Assembly (NCBI GenBank): GCA_963833985.1
Contig: CAWIAD010000002.1
Location: 6,528,001 to 6,592,000 of the forward strand
Direction: 5' to 3'
DNA: 64,000 nt
Source of the DNA: an uncultured Planctomycetaceae bacterium
Lineage (GTDB): Bacteria > Planctomycetota > Planctomycetia > Isosphaerales > Isosphaeraceae
In this document: positions 18,233 to 32,348 of the stretch, one piece after another
Layout: every line of letters begins with the position of its first letter
Position numbering within the stretch: position 1 is the first letter of the stretch
Notes under the pieces: model-generated
The model's database searches: none
Told to the model about the DNA's origin: nothing
What the model saw: the letters and a program-made list of their open reading frames with translations, nothing else
Translations under genes and position numbers: made by a program

Positions 18233-20761
18233 ATGCGACACCGAAAACCGGCTCGGACCCGCCCGGCGGCGTTCGAACGACTGGAAGACCGCTCGCTCTT
18301 GACCGTCCTGATCGCCCTGGTGGATACCGGCGTGGACCTCACCAGCAGCGCAGACGGCCCGTATTACAACTTCAGCGCCGCCTACGACGCATACAGCCAG
18401 CAGCCCGCGGCCCAGTACGGCGACGGCGTGGTCCAGGACACGAGCCTCCAGCACGGCCACGGCTCGACCGTCGCGGACCTGATCGTGCAGGGCATCCAGG
18501 CCGCCGAGTCCCAGCCCGGAGCCGGCGCCGCTGGCGTGCAGATCATGCCCATCCGCGACACCTCCAGCGGCGATAACATCGACGCCAGCGCGCTGGTGCG
18601 AGGCGTCTACTGGGCGGCCGACCACGGCGCCGCGGTGATCAACCTGAGCGTCGCCTCGACCTCCGATCCCGTGCTTCAGGATCTGGCCGACCCGCACAAC
18701 GGTTCCACACTCTCGCAAGCCATTGCTTACGCTCAGAGCAAGGGCGCCGTGGTGGTCACCGCGCCGGGGAACGATGCGATCAACATCGATCACCTGGTGC
18801 TGTACCCGGCTTACGCTTCCGACCCTGTGTATTCCACGGCCAGCCCCGCGCCCACCAACGTGATCGTGGCCGCGGCCGTTGATGCCGCGGGCAATCTCAC
18901 GTCCGTGTCGAGCTGGGGGCCGAACCACGTGGACCTGGGGGCGTATTCCAACGTGCAGGGTTTCACGTCGTACTCGGCGGGTTACACTTCCGGCGTCGCC
19001 GGCGTGATCGCGGCCCTGCTGCCGCCAGGACACCCGGCTCAGCAGGTGATCAGCGTGATCGAGGGCACGGCCACGCCGCATGCTCAGTCCGTCGGCGCCT
19101 GGAGCAAGACCGGAGGGGTGATCAACCCGGCCGGGGCGGTGGCCCGGGCCGAGGCCGCCGGCGTCATCATCAACGCCGGCGGAGGGGCGTCCACCGGCTA
19201 CGCGGCCGACGGAGACTACAGTGGAGGCTCGACCTACTCGGTCACCGACCCGATCAACACCAGCGGCCTGATCGACCCCGCACCCCAGCAGGTCTACCAG
19301 TCCGAGCGCTTCGGCAATTTCAGCTATACCCTCCCCAACCTGGTCCCAGATGCCCCCTATATCGTGCGGCTCGACTTCGCCGAGATCTACTGGAACGCGC
19401 CCGGCGACCGGCTCTTCAACGTCCTGATCAACGGTAACCCGGTGCTCACGAACTTCGATGTCTACGCCGTGGCGGGCGGCAAGGACATCGCCATCGAGCG
19501 CCAGTTTGAGAGCCTTTCGTCGAGCACCGGTCAGATCGTCATCCAGTTCACGAGCATTCGCGACAACGCCAAGGTGAGCGGCATCGAGGTCACCCCGGCG
19601 CCAGACCTCGCCCTGGGGAAGGCGGCCTACGCATCGTCGGTGGAGAGCACGTACTACGCGCCGGGTCTGGCGGTGGACGGCAACAGCAGCACGCGGTGGT
19701 CAAGCGGTCAATGGATGCAAAACGGCGAGACCGGCTGGATCTATGTGGACCTGGGAGCGCCTTACAGCATCTCGGAGGTGCGTCTGAACTGGGAGACGGC
19801 CTTCGCGGTGAACTACCAGATCCAGGTCAGCAACGACGCGGTGAACTGGACCACGATCAAGGTCATCAGCGGCAACCAGAGCAAGGGCGTGGCCGATTTC
19901 AGCGGACTTTCCGGCAGCGGACGTTTTGTGCGCATCGACTGCACCCAGCCCGGCCCCTATTCCAACAATTACTCGCTCTATGATTTCAGCGTCTTCGGCA
20001 CGGCGGTGACCGATCTTGCACTTGACCGACCCGCCTACGCATCGTCGGTGGAGAGTACGTACTACGCGCCGGGCCTGGCGGTGGACGGCAACAGCAGCAC
20101 GCGGTGGTCAAGCGGTCAATGGATGCAAAACGGCGAGACCGGCTGGATCTACGTGGACCTGGGAGCGCCTTACAGCATCTCGGAGGTGCGTCTGAACTGG
20201 GAGACGGCCTTCGCGGTGAACTACCAGATCCAGGTCAGCAACGACGCGGTGAACTGGACCACGATCAAGGTCATCAGCGGCAACCAGAGCAAGGGCGTGG
20301 CCGATTTCAGCGGACTTTCCGGCAGCGGACGTTTTGTGCGCATCGACTGCACCCAGCCCGGCCCCTATTCCAACAATTACTCGCTCTATGATTTCAGCGT
20401 CTTCGGCAGCCCGGCGCCGACGGCCCTGAGCCCGGCGGGGATGGTGGCGGCGCTGGCCGCGGGCTCCGGTGTGGCCGGATCAGGCCCGGTCCCCGCCGCT
20501 CCTCTGGCCATCACCCCCGTGCAGGCTTGTTCGGTCACGCCGAATGCCGCGTCGCCGGGACCCAGCGCCCCACCCTTGACGGTTGCCAGCGCTCCCGCCG
20601 GCCGGGAGCAGCAGTTCAGCGCCGGGTCCTTACCTGGCCAGCGTACGCTCTTGCTACCGGTGCACATGCCGGCACCGCGGCCCTTGGCATTTCCCCGGCA
20701 GTCCGTGAAACTCCGGCCAGCACCCCTCGAGGTCTACCAGAAGCGGTTGCGTCGGCGTTGA
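18233..20761 (+). CDS. Secreted S8 (subtilisin-like) peptidase with malectin and two F5/8-type C (discoidin) domains
   Basis: FERLEDRSLL planctomycete N-terminal motif; IALVDTG, HGHGSTVA, APGND, GFTSYSA; malectin VYQSERFG...LDFAEIYW...RLFNV; two copies of AVDGNSSTRWSS...WIYVDLG. Confidence 0.85.
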   Translation: MRHRKPARTRPAAFERLEDRSLLTVLIALVDTGVDLTSSADGPYYNFSAAYDAYSQQPAAQYGDGVVQDTSLQHGHGSTVADLIVQGIQAAESQPGAGAAGVQIMPIRDTSSGDNIDASALVRGVYWAADHGAAVINLSVASTSDPVLQDLADPHNGSTLSQAIAYAQSKGAVVVTAPGNDAINIDHLVLYPAYASDPVYSTASPAPTNVIVAAAVDAAGNLTSVSSWGPNHVDLGAYSNVQGFTSYSAGYTSGVAGVIAALLPPGHPAQQVISVIEGTATPHAQSVGAWSKTGGVINPAGAVARAEAAGVIINAGGGASTGYAADGDYSGGSTYSVTDPINTSGLIDPAPQQVYQSERFGNFSYTLPNLVPDAPYIVRLDFAEIYWNAPGDRLFNVLINGNPVLTNFDVYAVAGGKDIAIERQFESLSSSTGQIVIQFTSIRDNAKVSGIEVTPAPDLALGKAAYASSVESTYYAPGLAVDGNSSTRWSSGQWMQNGETGWIYVDLGAPYSISEVRLNWETAFAVNYQIQVSNDAVNWTTIKVISGNQSKGVADFSGLSGSGRFVRIDCTQPGPYSNNYSLYDFSVFGTAVTDLALDRPAYASSVESTYYAPGLAVDGNSSTRWSSGQWMQNGETGWIYVDLGAPYSISEVRLNWETAFAVNYQIQVSNDAVNWTTIKVISGNQSKGVADFSGLSGSGRFVRIDCTQPGPYSNNYSLYDFSVFGSPAPTALSPAGMVAALAAGSGVAGSGPVPAAPLAITPVQACSVTPNAASPGPSAPPLTVASAPAGREQQFSAGSLPGQRTLLLPVHMPAPRPLAFPRQSVKLRPAPLEVYQKRLRRR
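19625..20408 (+). repeat. Tandem 408-bp intragenic duplication (discoidin domain)
   Basis: 19625-20000 and 20033-20408 are near-identical; by eye I see three synonymous differences. Confidence 0.92.
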
Positions 20762-22016: not shown

Positions 22017-22264
22017 TGGTGAGCGAGGGATGATGGAAAGCTGGAAGTCGGTGAGCTATAGAAGGCGAATCAGCCCCGACACCTTTTGCGTGGCCCGGCC
22101 CGTTTTCTGTCCTCCTTCAGCGCAAGCGCATTGCGGGCTTGTCCGTCTTGCATTTTTTACGAAATGTTGCGAGGAGTAGATTTTGACAGAGCCGTCCAGA
22201 AAAGATTGAAATCTAAACTTTGCGCCGCCTTTAAGGGCTTCGATGATCTTGCCTACGGTATCGT

Positions 22265-22726
22265 TCATGACAACCACTTGGCCAATGGCGTTGTTAGGGA
22301 AGCCTGGCTTTCCTGCAAATTGCAGTATAGAAGGCCATCAGTACAGCAATCGAAGGTCTCGGTGAATAGCCTATACACGCGGGTGCGATGAATAGACGGG
22401 AAGAAGTTGGTTATGTCTACGGTGTAGGCGTAGACAGAGCCAGCGTGCACCCTCGCGTTGGTGATGATAGACCGTCCACGTACACCGCCGTGGCTATGAA
22501 CGGAGGGGCGAAGATTGGGGAGCAGGACTCGGGCATAAAGCCTGTCGAGCAAGAGCCTCCACAGCCCTCTAACCTCAATGATGTCCCGACACTTTCCAGG
22601 TTTCGTTGGATCTATCAAAGAATATTGACGAACACAATTGTGGAGATTGGTCAAACCCGCTCGGAGTCTGCGAGATGGGATGCCGAGGATATCCGCTAGG
22701 CACCGTTCCGACCGTATGTGCAGCAT
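22265..22726 (-). pseudogene. Retron-type reverse transcriptase, N-terminal 153 aa only
   Basis: KCRDI, HSHGGVRGRSIITNARVH (retron NAxxH region), VDITNFFPSI (RT motif A). No convincing PQG or YxDD motif in any downstream frame. Confidence 0.8.
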
Positions 22727-22727
22727 A

Positions 22728-23042
22728 TTAGTTGGCGATGTGCCGGTAGCGTACCTTCTCGGCGAGTTCACGCTTCCACGTCTCTGCGATTTTGGCTGCG
22801 GACTCCTGCAATGCCAGCGGTAGCTTGCTCGTGTCGCCGAAAAGACTCCATCCGAGAACGTGGAGATCAACGTCCCAGAGTTCCCGAAAACGATCAATTA
22901 ATTCCGGAGACGGGACAGACCTGCTGTTCTCGATATTGCAATAGTGAACAACCGAGATTCCCAATTCCTCGGCCATTTCCTTCTGCTTGAGACCCAAGCG
23001 CTCCCGCAAATATCGGGCAGTGCGACCCACGTAGAGACTCAT
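22728..23042 (-). CDS. XRE-family helix-turn-helix protein
   Basis: RYLRERLGLKQKEMAEELGISVVHYCNIENSRSVPS; GGAG RBS; stop codon lies 1 nt before the RT ATG. Confidence 0.9.
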   Translation of the reverse strand: MSLYVGRTARYLRERLGLKQKEMAEELGISVVHYCNIENSRSVPSPELIDRFRELWDVDLHVLGWSLFGDTSKLPLALQESAAKIAETWKRELAEKVRYRHIAN

Positions 23043-23071: not shown

Positions 23072-23320
23072 CTAGAACGCATTGGTTCCGGATAGGTAAG
23101 CAAAGGCTCTTGCCGTAGCAGACCATGCCGCGACAATGTCCGGCGGATCCTGATACAGTGCCTCAGCCACCTCCCTCTCCAGCGGTCCTAGAACACTCCC
23201 GTAAGCCGCAGCCAGTTCATCTGAGCCATTGATCTGATTCCAGAATTCCACTATGTCGTGCAATTTCCTCTCAGTATCGGGCAGTAATGAACCGGCGGAC
23301 GAGCGAACTACATCGATCAT
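23072..23320 (-). CDS. Small orphan protein (82 aa), putative retron effector
   Basis: ATG at 23320 preceded by GGGAG RBS; MIDVVRSSAG...GTNAF; co-oriented and tightly packed with the HTH and RT genes. Confidence 0.6.
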   Translation of the reverse strand: MIDVVRSSAGSLLPDTERKLHDIVEFWNQINGSDELAAAYGSVLGPLEREVAEALYQDPPDIVAAWSATARAFAYLSGTNAF

Positions 23321-23585
23321 GATGTGACTCCCAAAGGGGACGCGGCTTGGCACTGAGAAGTCCAGTACCAACCATTATGCTATAAGTAGGTACACATATA
23401 GCATGTGCCTGCGGACCTGGTGGTCTCACCTGGGGTGATGTAGCCGACCAGCCTTGGGCGGTGCGTTACGCGTCAAGTAAGCTCCGAGTCCGGTGAGCTC
23501 ACCAGTCAGAGGAACACCAGAAACGCAACGCTTCAGGTCCCGGAGGGCATCACGCTTTCGCGTGGGCGTTGGGAGCATTCGTCGT
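23321..23585 (-). ncRNA. Candidate retron msr/msd-like structured RNA
   Basis: Terminal inverted repeat (23569-23576 with 23327-23334) and several internal stems. G-U pairs and a GAAA tetraloop occur only in the minus-strand reading. Boundaries are approximate. Confidence 0.6.
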
Positions 23586-23591
23586 CTAAGA

Positions 23592-23623
23592 TCTACTAAA
23601 GTAGAAGTTTAATCCGAAGTCAA
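23592..23623 (-). promoter_or_regulatory. Candidate promoter with palindromic operator
   Basis: Minus-strand TTGACT (23623-23618). The perfect palindrome TCTACT-AA-AGTAGA (23592-23605) covers the expected -10 position; the -10 match itself is weak. Confidence 0.45.
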
Positions 23624-24036
23624 GATGCAGGCCAAGAGAAGCGAACTCCAAAAGAGACATCATTCCGATCGCAGACAACAGGGAAACAGTTCGTTGTGCC
23701 TGCTGAGTCTCCGTTGATTCTTCAGGAAGAGAGACACGATTGGAATCGTATCCCACGAGAAGAGGGAGGCGACTGGAAGCGTAGCACTTCCGAGTGGGCC
23801 CGTCGGGGCCTGACTTGCAGCAACAGGCGGTGGTTCGGTCATAAGGGTTCTACGTGTGGTGCGGAGTGGGGGCGCTGGTCTTTCTCGCCGGGGTTGTCCC
23901 ATTGGCGCAGATTGGCGCTTAAGATAGCAGGGACCGGCGACGAGGCCGGGGTATGTTCAGAGGCAGGGAGAAGCCCCGGGTCGTGAGCGATCCCGCGTTC
24001 CAGCTTCAACAATCCCACAAAAACCAGGAGCCGCCG

Positions 24037-25275
24037 ATGTCCGCCGCGCTCGCCGAATTGCCTGATGCGAAAGACGTTACGCATCTCGCCACATCCATCA
24101 TGCCCACGCCTGCCGCAAGTCCGGCGCGGGCCGAGGCCAGCCGGGCCAACGGCCGCAAGTCGCGCGGGCCGACTTCGCCGGAGGGGAAGGCTCGCAGCCG
24201 GAAGAATGGATGCAAGGAGGGGCTCACCGGGGCCGGGGTCGTGTTGCCGCCGGCCGCGGCCGAGGAGGTCGAACGGCGCGAGCGCGAGTTCATCCGCGAC
24301 CTCCGGCCCCGCAACGAGGTCGAGCGCGAGCTCGTTCGGCAGATCGCACTCGGGGCGTGGCGGCAGCACGAGCTGTGCCTGCGGATCATCCGCCACGACG
24401 CCGAGACGAACGCCGCCCGGTTCGCCAACTGGGAGCAGGACGAGCTGGTCAAGGTCGCGGAGATTGGCCGGCGGCTGGCGGATGATCCGCAGGCGGCCGT
24501 CGCGCAGCTTCAGCGATCCAGCTCCGGCTGCGACTGGCTCATCGAGCGCTGGAGGCTCTTGGGCAATGCCCTCGGAGCGGCCGAAGACAGCCCGCGGTGC
24601 GACTGGTCCGAGGCCGACGTCACGCTCATTCTCAACCTGCTGAGCCGGCCGGCGGAGCTGCGGCATCTGGATGACTGGACGGGCTGGCTGGAGGGCCTCT
24701 GCACGCAGGCCCGGTCGGGGTCGGACGAGGCCGTGGGCGAGCTGCGGGCGATGATCGACGAGCAGGTCGAGGAGCTGGAGAGGCGGAGCGACGAGGTCTG
24801 GCAGTCCGTCGAGCAGCCGGCCATGCAGGGCTGGCTGACCGGGGCGAGCCTGGACCTGGGCCCCGAGGGCACACGCCTCCGGCGCTACGAGGCGGCCGCC
24901 GACAGGCTCTTCCGCTCGGCCTGGACCAAGCTGGAAAAGCTGCGCGCTGAGCGCGGGAGGCCCATGATCGGCCATTCCGCGTATCGCCACGAGCCCGAGC
25001 CACTCCCGCGCACCCGCTCGGCCGAGCCGCCCGAGCCCGCGGCACCCCCGGCTTCTGCACCGGCAGTGACGGTTGCGCCGGCCGCGGCACGTCCGCGGCT
25101 CGAGGTTCCGGCCTCGACTCTGCGAGACGATCCCTCCCCGGTGCTCGACCTCTACGTGGCCGGCCGGCCGGGCAACGCGGATCGCCCCGGTTTTTCATTG
25201 CAGAACAAAGCGAACCCGGCGCCCGGCCTGATCTCGAAGGGCGGACTGGCCGCGGCCCTCCGCGGCAAGGTCTGA
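24037..25275 (+). CDS. Conserved hypothetical protein (planctomycete multicopy type)
   Basis: AGGAG RBS; ASRANGRKSRGPTSPEGKARSRKN...GLTG N-terminal motif and LRRYEAAADRLF C-terminal motif. Confidence 0.75.
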   Translation: MSAALAELPDAKDVTHLATSIMPTPAASPARAEASRANGRKSRGPTSPEGKARSRKNGCKEGLTGAGVVLPPAAAEEVERREREFIRDLRPRNEVERELVRQIALGAWRQHELCLRIIRHDAETNAARFANWEQDELVKVAEIGRRLADDPQAAVAQLQRSSSGCDWLIERWRLLGNALGAAEDSPRCDWSEADVTLILNLLSRPAELRHLDDWTGWLEGLCTQARSGSDEAVGELRAMIDEQVEELERRSDEVWQSVEQPAMQGWLTGASLDLGPEGTRLRRYEAAADRLFRSAWTKLEKLRAERGRPMIGHSAYRHEPEPLPRTRSAEPPEPAAPPASAPAVTVAPAAARPRLEVPASTLRDDPSPVLDLYVAGRPGNADRPGFSLQNKANPAPGLISKGGLAAALRGKV

Positions 25276-30839: not shown

Positions 30840-32348
30840 TTCTACTGTATCCTGGGGTTGACGAACTGTAAGGTTTTTTCTGATATTCGCTTCCGTCAAG
30901 GATGTTACAAGGAAGCGAGGGCGTCATGGATCGACGATACGAAGCACGGTTGGCTGACATGCTGGCACAATCGCAGGTGTCGCCTGACTTGATCGATGGT
31001 CTGCTGGAACGGTTGGACGTCTTCATCGAGCCGTTCGCTGCGACCCTGAGCGAACCTGAACAACATCGACATGCAACCGAGTACGTTACCGGTCTGCTGT
31101 CGAAGCTTGAGCACAAGACCGGCGAGGGAATCGCTTATCTCCACGATCAAGAACGACAAGGAATCCAAAAGTTCATCGGGCACGTGCCATGGGATCATCA
31201 ACCCCTGCTCACGATCCTGCGCAGCAGGTCGGCGAGCAACTGGGCGAGAAGGATGGGGTGATTATCTTCGACCCTTCGGGCTTCCCCAAGAAAGGGACTA
31301 TGTCGGTGGGCGTCGCGCGGCAGTGGTGCGGCCGGCTGGGGAAGGTTGAGAACTGTCAGGTTGGCGTCTACATGGCTTATGCGTCTAGAAAAGAGCATAC
31401 GATTACCAATGTAAGGCTTTACTTGCCCAAGGAATGGGCCAAGGATCGCGACCGCCGGAACAAGGCTGGCGTCCCCAAGTCCATCAAGTTCCAGACGCGC
31501 CATCAATTGGCCCTGGCGATGCTGGATGAGCAAGGTGGGTTGCTGCCACACGCGTGGGTGGCGGGGGACGATGAAATGGGCCGTCCCGCGAGTTTTCGCC
31601 AGGCGTTGAGGGAGCGGGGGGAGCAGTATCTGTTGGCGGTTCCGTCGAACACGACGATCCGCGATCTGGAGGCACCGCCACCGGAATATGGGGGGCGGGG
31701 TCAACCCCCCAAGGCTCCTTTCATGCGTGTGGATCATTGGCGTGCGGCCCTGCCGGAATCGGCGTGGACGAGGCTCGACGTCCGTGATGGCGAGAAGGGA
31801 CCTTTGGTGGTCGACGCGATCAAGCGGCGCGTCCAATCTCGAGGACCGGGCAATCGTGCAGGTTTCGAGGAGGTCCTCTTCATCACGCGTGAGCAACAGG
31901 CCGATGGAACTGTTAAACATGATTATTATTTATCAAATAGTAAAGCCGAAACTCCGTTGATCGAATTTGGCCGGGTGGCCAAACTGGCGCATCGGATCGA
32001 GGAGTGCCTGGAGCGGGGCAAAGGGGAGGCGGGCCTGGCCGATTACCAGGTGCGGAACTGGATCGCCTGGCATCACCATCAAACCTTGTCGCTCGTGGCC
32101 GCGTGGTTCCTGAATCAGGAGACGCGGCGGGGAAAAAATACAGACACCGGCATTGACGTCACCGCGGTTGCGGCAACTGATCGCAGGGATCATCGAGGAA
32201 CGTCTCAACGTCAACAGCCCCGAGAAGCTCTCCCGGTGCACCACACGTTGGTTGGAACGCAACGAGCTCGCCCGATTCTTCCAGCATTACTCACGCAAAC
32301 TCTTACCCCCTTTGAAGAACCAACTACGAACGTAGAGATACAGTAGAA
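30840..32348 (+). mobile_element. IS701-family insertion sequence
   Basis: 12-bp IRs TTCTACTGTATC (30840-30851) and GATACAGTAGAA (32337-32348), with a 4-bp direct repeat GTAT at 30836-30839 and 32349-32352. Confidence 0.9.
30926..32346 (+). CDS. IS701-family transposase (frameshift near 31218)
   Basis: FDPSGFPKKGTMSVGVARQWCGRLGKVENCQVGV, WVAGDDEMG, IEECLERGKGEAGLADYQVRNW. Confidence 0.9.

Follow-up and report, generated by a model that had tools for sequence, protein, structure and literature searches.

A probable Type VI retron whose leader RNA is conserved, likely disarmed by the loss of the catalytic half of its reverse transcriptase

Genes of the operon and the state of its reverse transcriptase

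The window analysed here, the whole stretch of 64,000 nucleotides, carries on its minus strand an operon in which a leader is followed by an 82-aa ORF (SP), a Cro/C1-type HTH gene and a reverse transcriptase (RT) gene. The SP frame is intact (23072..23320, minus strand, ATG at 23320), and its homologues occupy the same place in related loci. The HTH gene, also intact, encodes 104 aa (22728..23042, minus strand); its best PADLOC match is HTH_VI (E 2.7e-11, next family 0.003), Pfam HTH_31 and HTH_3 score above cut-off, and its stop lies one base before the start of the shortened retron RT (22265..22726, minus strand), for which RT_VI is the best model (E 4.5e-20, profile positions 5-125 of 279). 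Because the best PADLOC matches are HTH_VI and RT_VI, the layout is that of a Type VI retron, of whose hybrid RNA the structured leader (23321..23587, minus strand, z -5.67) would be the msr-msd part.

The model of the SP shows three helices (14-32, 34-56 and 62-76; mean pLDDT 77), and the protein is likely a toxic effector. It had no match in PADLOC, Pfam or NCBIfam, the ESM Atlas returned unnamed clusters only (at 0.91), and 34 matches were obtained among 50%-identity representatives, mostly of 72-106 aa, three of them being long repetitive proteins. As a family missed by PADLOC, Pfam and NCBIfam, the SP is possibly new.

The operon lies in a 1.9-kb patch of 48-58% GC amid DNA of about 70% GC. 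In 13 genomes of the same genus matches were confined to the flanks, with none for the patch DNA and no close RT in any of them, and for this reason the patch has the appearance of an accessory island. A short repeat with 61 matches in 42 clusters genome-wide, often as tandem copies at a period of 35 nt, has one copy (23726-23785) directly upstream of the promoter of the retron; it resembles a family of intergenic repeats, and the island edge may be marked by it. The neighbouring 440-aa ORF (23953-25275, plus strand) had no match in Pfam or NCBIfam and is possibly a mobile element, with at least four further copies in this genome at 69-75% DNA identity and others in same-genus genomes. Elsewhere in the window, a transposase-like reading extends over two overlapping frames (31189-32346, plus strand, with 30902-31261), and in an 842-aa ORF (18233-20761, plus strand) a domain of about 135 aa occurs twice close to the end.

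Homology of the RT frame to its relatives ends near residue 128-130 (about position 22340), and a stop follows at 153, so that NAxxH is present, as NARVH, and the catalytic DD and region Y are missing. Most related loci encode a full-length RT with the DD, and all 18 of the longer RT relatives (322-374 aa, up to 79% identical) run through LG..SP and [YF][VI]DD; the sole close RT relative bearing a name is that of Paludisphaera rhizosphaerae, which we take to be a planctomycete. The missing half is in no other frame at the locus, the C-terminal half of the closest relative had no match in the genome (best E 0.63), and a search of the genome with the RT_VI model gave, beyond this fragment, one weak unrelated stretch only (E 9e-4). 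About 200 codons have been lost, with unrelated DNA in their place and no frameshift. Because the RT stops before the catalytic DD and the rest of it is not in the genome, this copy is likely disarmed. The replacing DNA (22020-22340) amounts to about 320 bp of low GC with an open frame at 22319-22059, and gave no match when compared with NCBIfam, with longer proteins and with the fetched loci. Public contigs covered two 151-nt pieces without differences and did not bridge the RT junction; a contig piece at 22164-22314, from a public run that may be the source sample, matches the replacing DNA exactly. An RT with an internal stop or frameshift was also seen in three relatives (L055, L045 and L042), in which the SP and HTH frames are intact, and some of these broken RTs may be sequencing errors.

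The leader RNA and its conservation

The two ends of the leader are predicted to pair with each other on the minus-strand RNA. The a1-like 5' arm GCTCCCAA (23576-23569), an anti-Shine-Dalgarno, is complementary to the 3' arm TTGGGAGT (23334-23327), which includes the Shine-Dalgarno (SD) of the SP, GGGAG (23332-23328). Enclosed by this closing stem, and all on the minus strand, are a first short hairpin, CACGC-GAAA-GCGUG (23564-23551), which is msr-like; a long branched inner domain (23413..23540 in the MFE fold), including the arm GCGTTGCG/CGTAACGC (23531-23524 with 23470-23463) and the internal hairpin GGTGAGCTCACC (23503-23492); and, ahead of the SD, two hairpins (23347..23404), namely ATGCTATA/TATAGCAT (23404-23397 with 23384-23377) and TTGGTACTG/CAGTGCCAA (23371-23363 with 23355-23347). 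The inner domain varies in length and sequence among relatives and is a candidate msd template. These stems had been proposed in the initial annotation, and the 11 segments that it listed proved correct in letters and in minus-strand coordinates, as did its three G-U pairs. Folding favoured the minus strand: positions 23300-23590 folded on the minus strand to -121.4 kcal/mol (z -5.67), a value matched by none of 200 shuffles, and the plus strand reached a z of -1.13 only, with 27 of 200 shuffles as good.

For a transcript that reaches the HTH start, pair probabilities in the closing stem are 0.98-0.99 for its six core pairs, 0.82 for the terminal G-U and 0.23 for the last A-U. This stem had been described as only 8 bp long, which understates the structure over the SP start. 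The predicted fold adds a 5-bp hairpin (23325-23321/23314-23310) that holds the SP AUG in its loop, and the 5' end of the RNA (23577..23586, minus strand) forms, in the MFE fold, a lower basal helix with SP codons 5-8 (23308-23298). For this copy the probability of the lower helix is 0.82-1.0 in shorter transcripts and about 0.11-0.12 when the HTH leader is included, with which it is predicted to compete. Opening the SP start is predicted to cost 17.3 kcal/mol here, and 9.9 without the 5' arm, as compared to 11.6 at the start of the HTH; averaged across the loci, the three costs are 18.4, 14.2 and 10.1 kcal/mol, respectively. Just 3' of the 5' arm, G 23567 (minus strand) might tentatively be put forward as the RT priming and branching site, given that a G followed by C or A lies within -1..+3 of the arm end in 21/22 loci. 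A pairing of 23620-23612 with the HTH RBS, seen in a 611-nt fold, was rejected because the predicted promoter includes these bases, which puts them upstream of where the transcript is predicted to start.

Relatives were sought in family genomes (5 of 120), class genomes (9 of 400) and metagenomes (best 80 of 382 stretches). Loci with SP, HTH and RT that were carried on numbered 25, the window included, with duplicates and loci with a short upstream region left out; removal of one locus whose promoter is off the contig (L072) and of two near-copies (L071 and L044) gave a comparison set of 22. A GGAG-type SD precedes the SP throughout. RNAalifold on a MAFFT alignment did not recover the closing stem and returned two short 5' hairpins only, in which six of six pairs have changes on both sides; four of these pairs form the CACGC-GAAA-GCGUG hairpin, in this sequence-only alignment. 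By eye, gaps in the alignment shift the 5' arm out of register. Because the long-range stem was missed in this way, we used an alignment-free covariation test, in which the 5' segment of each locus was paired with the SD segment of every locus and significance was obtained by permutation.

A helix of at least 7 bp between the 5' arm and the SP SD is present in 21/22 loci, the window included, and the remaining locus (L061) has 5 bp. The duplex of the closing stem averaged -15.6 kcal/mol for own-locus pairings versus -10.5 for cross-locus ones, its helix length 9.0 versus 6.3 bp, and the duplex of the lower helix -14.4 versus -10.1 kcal/mol (p<=5e-5 for either helix), although these p-values overstate the case because of the kinship among the loci and because the windows for the test were picked after seeing the folds. 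No significance was reached by two control pairings (p 0.55 and 0.26). Of the columns immediately 5' of the SD core, the nearest three show pairing in 18, 19 and 21 of the 22 loci, with 4-5 pair types each, and columns further out in just 5-8 of 22, counts that are descriptive since the columns were anchored on the helix. When folded at full length, 17/22 loci keep the SD paired to the 5' arm, and 18/22, this copy (0.12) not among them, form the lower helix; the z of the sense-strand leader is below -3 in 17 loci of the set, and sense beats antisense in 19. The covariation that the initial annotation had asked of homologous leaders is thus found for both basal helices, with the reservation that the 22 loci of the permutation test are kin, and the leader RNA is real and conserved.

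A further candidate pairing fared less well. For the motif TGG[A/T]T, present in 15/22 loci (here at 23374-23368), a possible partner lies past the SP stop at 23065-23059, in a pairing of the IR1-IR2 type around the SP gene. The signal is weak over the set (p=0.003), single loci reached p<0.05 against shuffles in just 3 of 24, and this copy ranks 19 of 22; the pairing was dropped for this copy.

Promoter, palindrome and place among the Type VI retrons

A sigma70-type promoter is predicted at 23595..23623 (minus strand), with the -35 box TTGACT (23623-23618), a 17-nt spacer and the -10 box TTTAGT (23600-23595), which would place the transcription start near 23587. Since a consensus promoter scanner gave 0 sites in the window, the call rests on the relatives, and in 22/22 loci a -10-like hexamer lies 16-18 nt downstream of TTGAC, which served as the anchor. 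Over the spacer and the -10 box lies a palindrome, TTAAA-N7-TTTA(G/A) (23596..23612, no strand). At least 8 of the 10 letters of TTAAA-N7-TTTAA are kept in 21/22 loci, the gap being fixed at 7 nt, and the pattern has a single occurrence in the 10.2-Mb genome and is rare elsewhere in the loci (12 matches in 38,237 positions). No such palindrome was seen, by eye, in the promoters of a sister clade, in which the recognition helix of the HTH differs. Because the spacing is fixed and the palindrome overlaps the -10 box, we suggest it as a candidate operator for the HTH.

A conserved palindrome in this position is possibly new. The words "operator" and "palindrome" are absent from the main texts, as available, of the two preprints on the studied Type VI retrons Vpa2 and Sen3 (10.1101/2025.10.22.683967; 10.64898/2026.04.27.721009), "operator" is likewise absent from the available text of the Type IX preprint (10.64898/2026.07.14.737667), and a literature search on retron HTH operators or autoregulation gave no title on Type VI retrons. 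Mestre et al. speak of the Type VI HTH as 'potentially targeting transcriptional regulation' (PMC7736814). Read as RNA, the palindrome may be the 5-bp stem-loop that the Sen3 preprint places just upstream of the 5' repeat and reports as needed for defence (10.64898/2026.04.27.721009), a comparison made by description only; the loop of the "5' stem-loop" of cl2075 spans, in the same text, 3-14 nt, whereas the gap here is fixed at 7 nt and the palindrome overlaps the -10 box.

Other traits agree with the Type VI description. The order ncRNA-SP-HTH-RT is the same, the HTH of 104 aa falls in the 91-110 range and directly precedes the RT, the SP (about 75-79 aa and a three-helix bundle in the description) has 82 aa and three helices in its model, and sequestration of the SP RBS in the RNA is indicated by prediction and covariation; the complete RT of a functional retron, with NAxxH, DD and region Y, is lacking here. 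As defined by Mestre et al. 2020, Type VI likewise combines a clade-3-like RT, a Cro/C1 HTH of 91-110 aa and a small three-helix auxiliary protein (PMC7736814). Unlike in that definition, the SPs of this clade measure 77-88 aa and find no PADLOC model, 0 of 26 members matching any of them at E 0.1; Type VI SPs have been sorted into clusters 2075, 2760, 3272 and 3897. According to the Sen3 preprint, Mestre et al. defined no ncRNA for Type VI (10.64898/2026.04.27.721009).

RT_VI is also the best model for six of six full-length RT relatives (173-186 bits; next families 148-161). In the RT tree (47 of 127 rows), the reference rows were typed by PADLOC match and gene order, the Vpa2 and Sen3 RTs were left out and the tree was rooted on 14 RTs of other retron types. 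Against these 14, both the clade and its sister join the SP-HTH-RT rows (100/98), and the best PADLOC match of those rows, where scanned, is mostly RT_VI or RT_V; together with the RT_VI matches, this grouping agrees with RT clade 3 (Types IV/V/VI). As to the place of the clade inside the group, a position outside the other rows has an AU p of 0.31, and no nesting in Type VI, for which five subclades have been published, was seen. The sister clade (L068, L070, L073-L078 and L012) has the same SP-HTH-RT order with a different SP family. Type VI has been listed mainly in Bacteroidota, Bacillota and Pseudomonadota (PMC13712802), and in the Type VI retron literature accessible, planctomycetes included, we found no description of this lineage, although published covariance models or trees may already include planctomycete members or the palindrome.

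The leader as a translational lock

Two Type VI members have been studied. In Retron-Vpa2 the translation of the toxin is locked by RNA and released by msDNA (10.1101/2025.10.22.683967). Like the locus described here, Vpa2 has the order ncRNA-SP-HTH-RT, with the RBS as well as the start codon of the SP inside RNA structure. There, the RBS lies in a second arm of local stem-loops and an a1/a2-like repeat closes behind the SP gene, whereas here the SD and early codons of the SP have their partner in the RNA's own 5' end; the SP has 82 aa as opposed to 55, and the RT is shortened, unlike that of Vpa2. The trigger proposed for Vpa2 involves 7-nt direct repeats in the loops of the msd and the RBS arm (10.1101/2025.10.22.683967), and repeats of this kind were not found in the 22 loci, where the longest shared word averaged 6.1 letters against 6.3 in shuffled sequence. 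Retron-Sen3, of the cl2075 group, resembles our locus in several ways: its leader is of similar length and carries inverted repeats at its ends, the RBS of the SP falls within the basal stem, the inner stem is long and variable and a candidate for the msd, the SP has about 80 aa, and an IR1-IR2 pairing around the SP gene is possible. The cl2075 group has been reported chiefly from Beta- and Gammaproteobacteria and its control is post-translational: in Sen3 the RBS lies in the basal stem, and yet the SP is constitutive and is held by the HTH (10.64898/2026.04.27.721009). A dead RT removes defence and is tolerated, and loss of the HTH is toxic, in both Vpa2 and Sen3 (10.1101/2025.10.22.683967; 10.64898/2026.04.27.721009); loss of the leader is toxic in Vpa2 (10.1101/2025.10.22.683967).

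We consider it probable that the leader is a Type VI retron-type ncRNA whose 5' end hides the SD and first codons of a likely toxic SP until reverse transcription is triggered by a phage, and that the copy in this genome is likely both locked and disarmed. The RNA would be a hybrid of msr-msd and SP mRNA, whose basal stems would hold the SP untranslated. In an intact copy, judging from Vpa2 and general retron biology, a phage trigger would let the RT prime at a G that adjoins the 5' arm, with the inner domain serving as template; build-up of msDNA, or loss of the copied template, might then open the lock and free the SD, and the SP so produced would arrest the infected cell. The HTH would hold reverse transcription down. 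Of the initial reading, the a1/a2-like closing stem over the SD of the small ORF stands, conserved, covarying and part of an operon with the Type VI layout. Release of the lock by reverse transcription, which that reading also proposed, matches the mechanism published for Retron-Vpa2 (10.1101/2025.10.22.683967), and is for that reason not new; in this copy release would not come from the adjoining gene, because its RT is without the catalytic half. The break in the RT and the reach of the lock into the SP coding sequence go beyond what had been annotated. Because a dead RT is without defence but tolerated in Vpa2 and Sen3, the present copy would be locked and inactive, and an RT broken beside intact SP and HTH genes, as seen here and in L055, L045 and L042, fits a system in which HTH loss is toxic and a dead RT is not. 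This copy would also illustrate that the RT can be lost while the lock, the HTH and the toxin gene persist.

We call the closing stem a likely translational lock, and do not go further, because Sen3 has the same RBS-in-basal-stem layout and yet produces its SP constitutively. By analogy with Sen3, the basal stem could be mainly an a1/a2 priming helix that only dampens translation, with the SP made at rest and neutralised by the HTH. We regard this as rather unlikely, albeit worth serious attention: the RBS-in-basal-stem architecture and the leaders of 220-340 nt are nearer to Sen3 than to Vpa2, the loop repeats of Vpa2 are missing, and an SP of 82 aa with three helices resembles some cl2075 SPs; against it, a second covarying helix lies on SP codons 5-8, beyond any obvious need of priming, and the SP start is predicted to be far costlier to open than the HTH start. 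If, alternatively, the RT break were an assembly error, or another RT acted in trans, the system would be active. The junction has no independent record and some broken RTs of relatives could be sequencing errors, but the replacement of about 200 codons by unrelated DNA with no frameshift, the lack of a genome match to the C-terminal half of the relative (best E 0.63) or of more than one weak stretch for RT_VI (E 9e-4), and the public contig piece at 22164-22314, identical to the replacing DNA in a run that may be the source sample, make this improbable.

Still less probable is that the clade is a separate retron type, sister to clade 3 and with its own effector and RNA logic, instead of Type VI proper. 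In its favour, the RT_VI scores of the full-length relatives are moderate, a place for the clade outside the other clade-3-like rows is not rejected by the AU test and none of the 26 SPs has a PADLOC match, but the Type VI description is matched in the order of the genes, in the size and family of the HTH, in the size and fold of the SP and in the sequestration of the RBS. That GC-rich DNA folds in this way by chance, or that the leader is an ordinary one with no relation to the RT, would agree with the result of an Rfam search of the whole window, in which 0 families reached the gathering score; it is largely ruled out by the covariation and the leader folding of the set, given a z of -5.67 with strand bias and stems that covary in the same place in 21 of 22 retron loci, and the chance left to it is negligible.

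At its core the finding follows a known design, and its value lies in a further Type VI lineage whose RNA lock is well resolved across about 20 loci. In the two members studied the toxin is kept in check in different ways, by translation in one and by a protein antitoxin in the other, and an intact member of this clade could show which of the two is general. More speculatively, and with odds that we would place well below even, the loci could represent a Type VI lineage centred on planctomycetes that has an SP toxin family of its own and follows a third logic of control, in which the HTH would sit on the palindrome as operator, the priming stem would itself be the lock, and reverse transcription would cut the leash between the anti-SD and the SP mRNA in cis, with no trans-acting loop repeats. 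The conserved palindrome would make it possible to ask directly whether the Type VI HTH binds DNA. In five loci (L045, L049, L052, L060 and L044) the HTH helix reads TNV and the right half of the palindrome reads TATAA, a match that could be protein-site covariation or just kinship.
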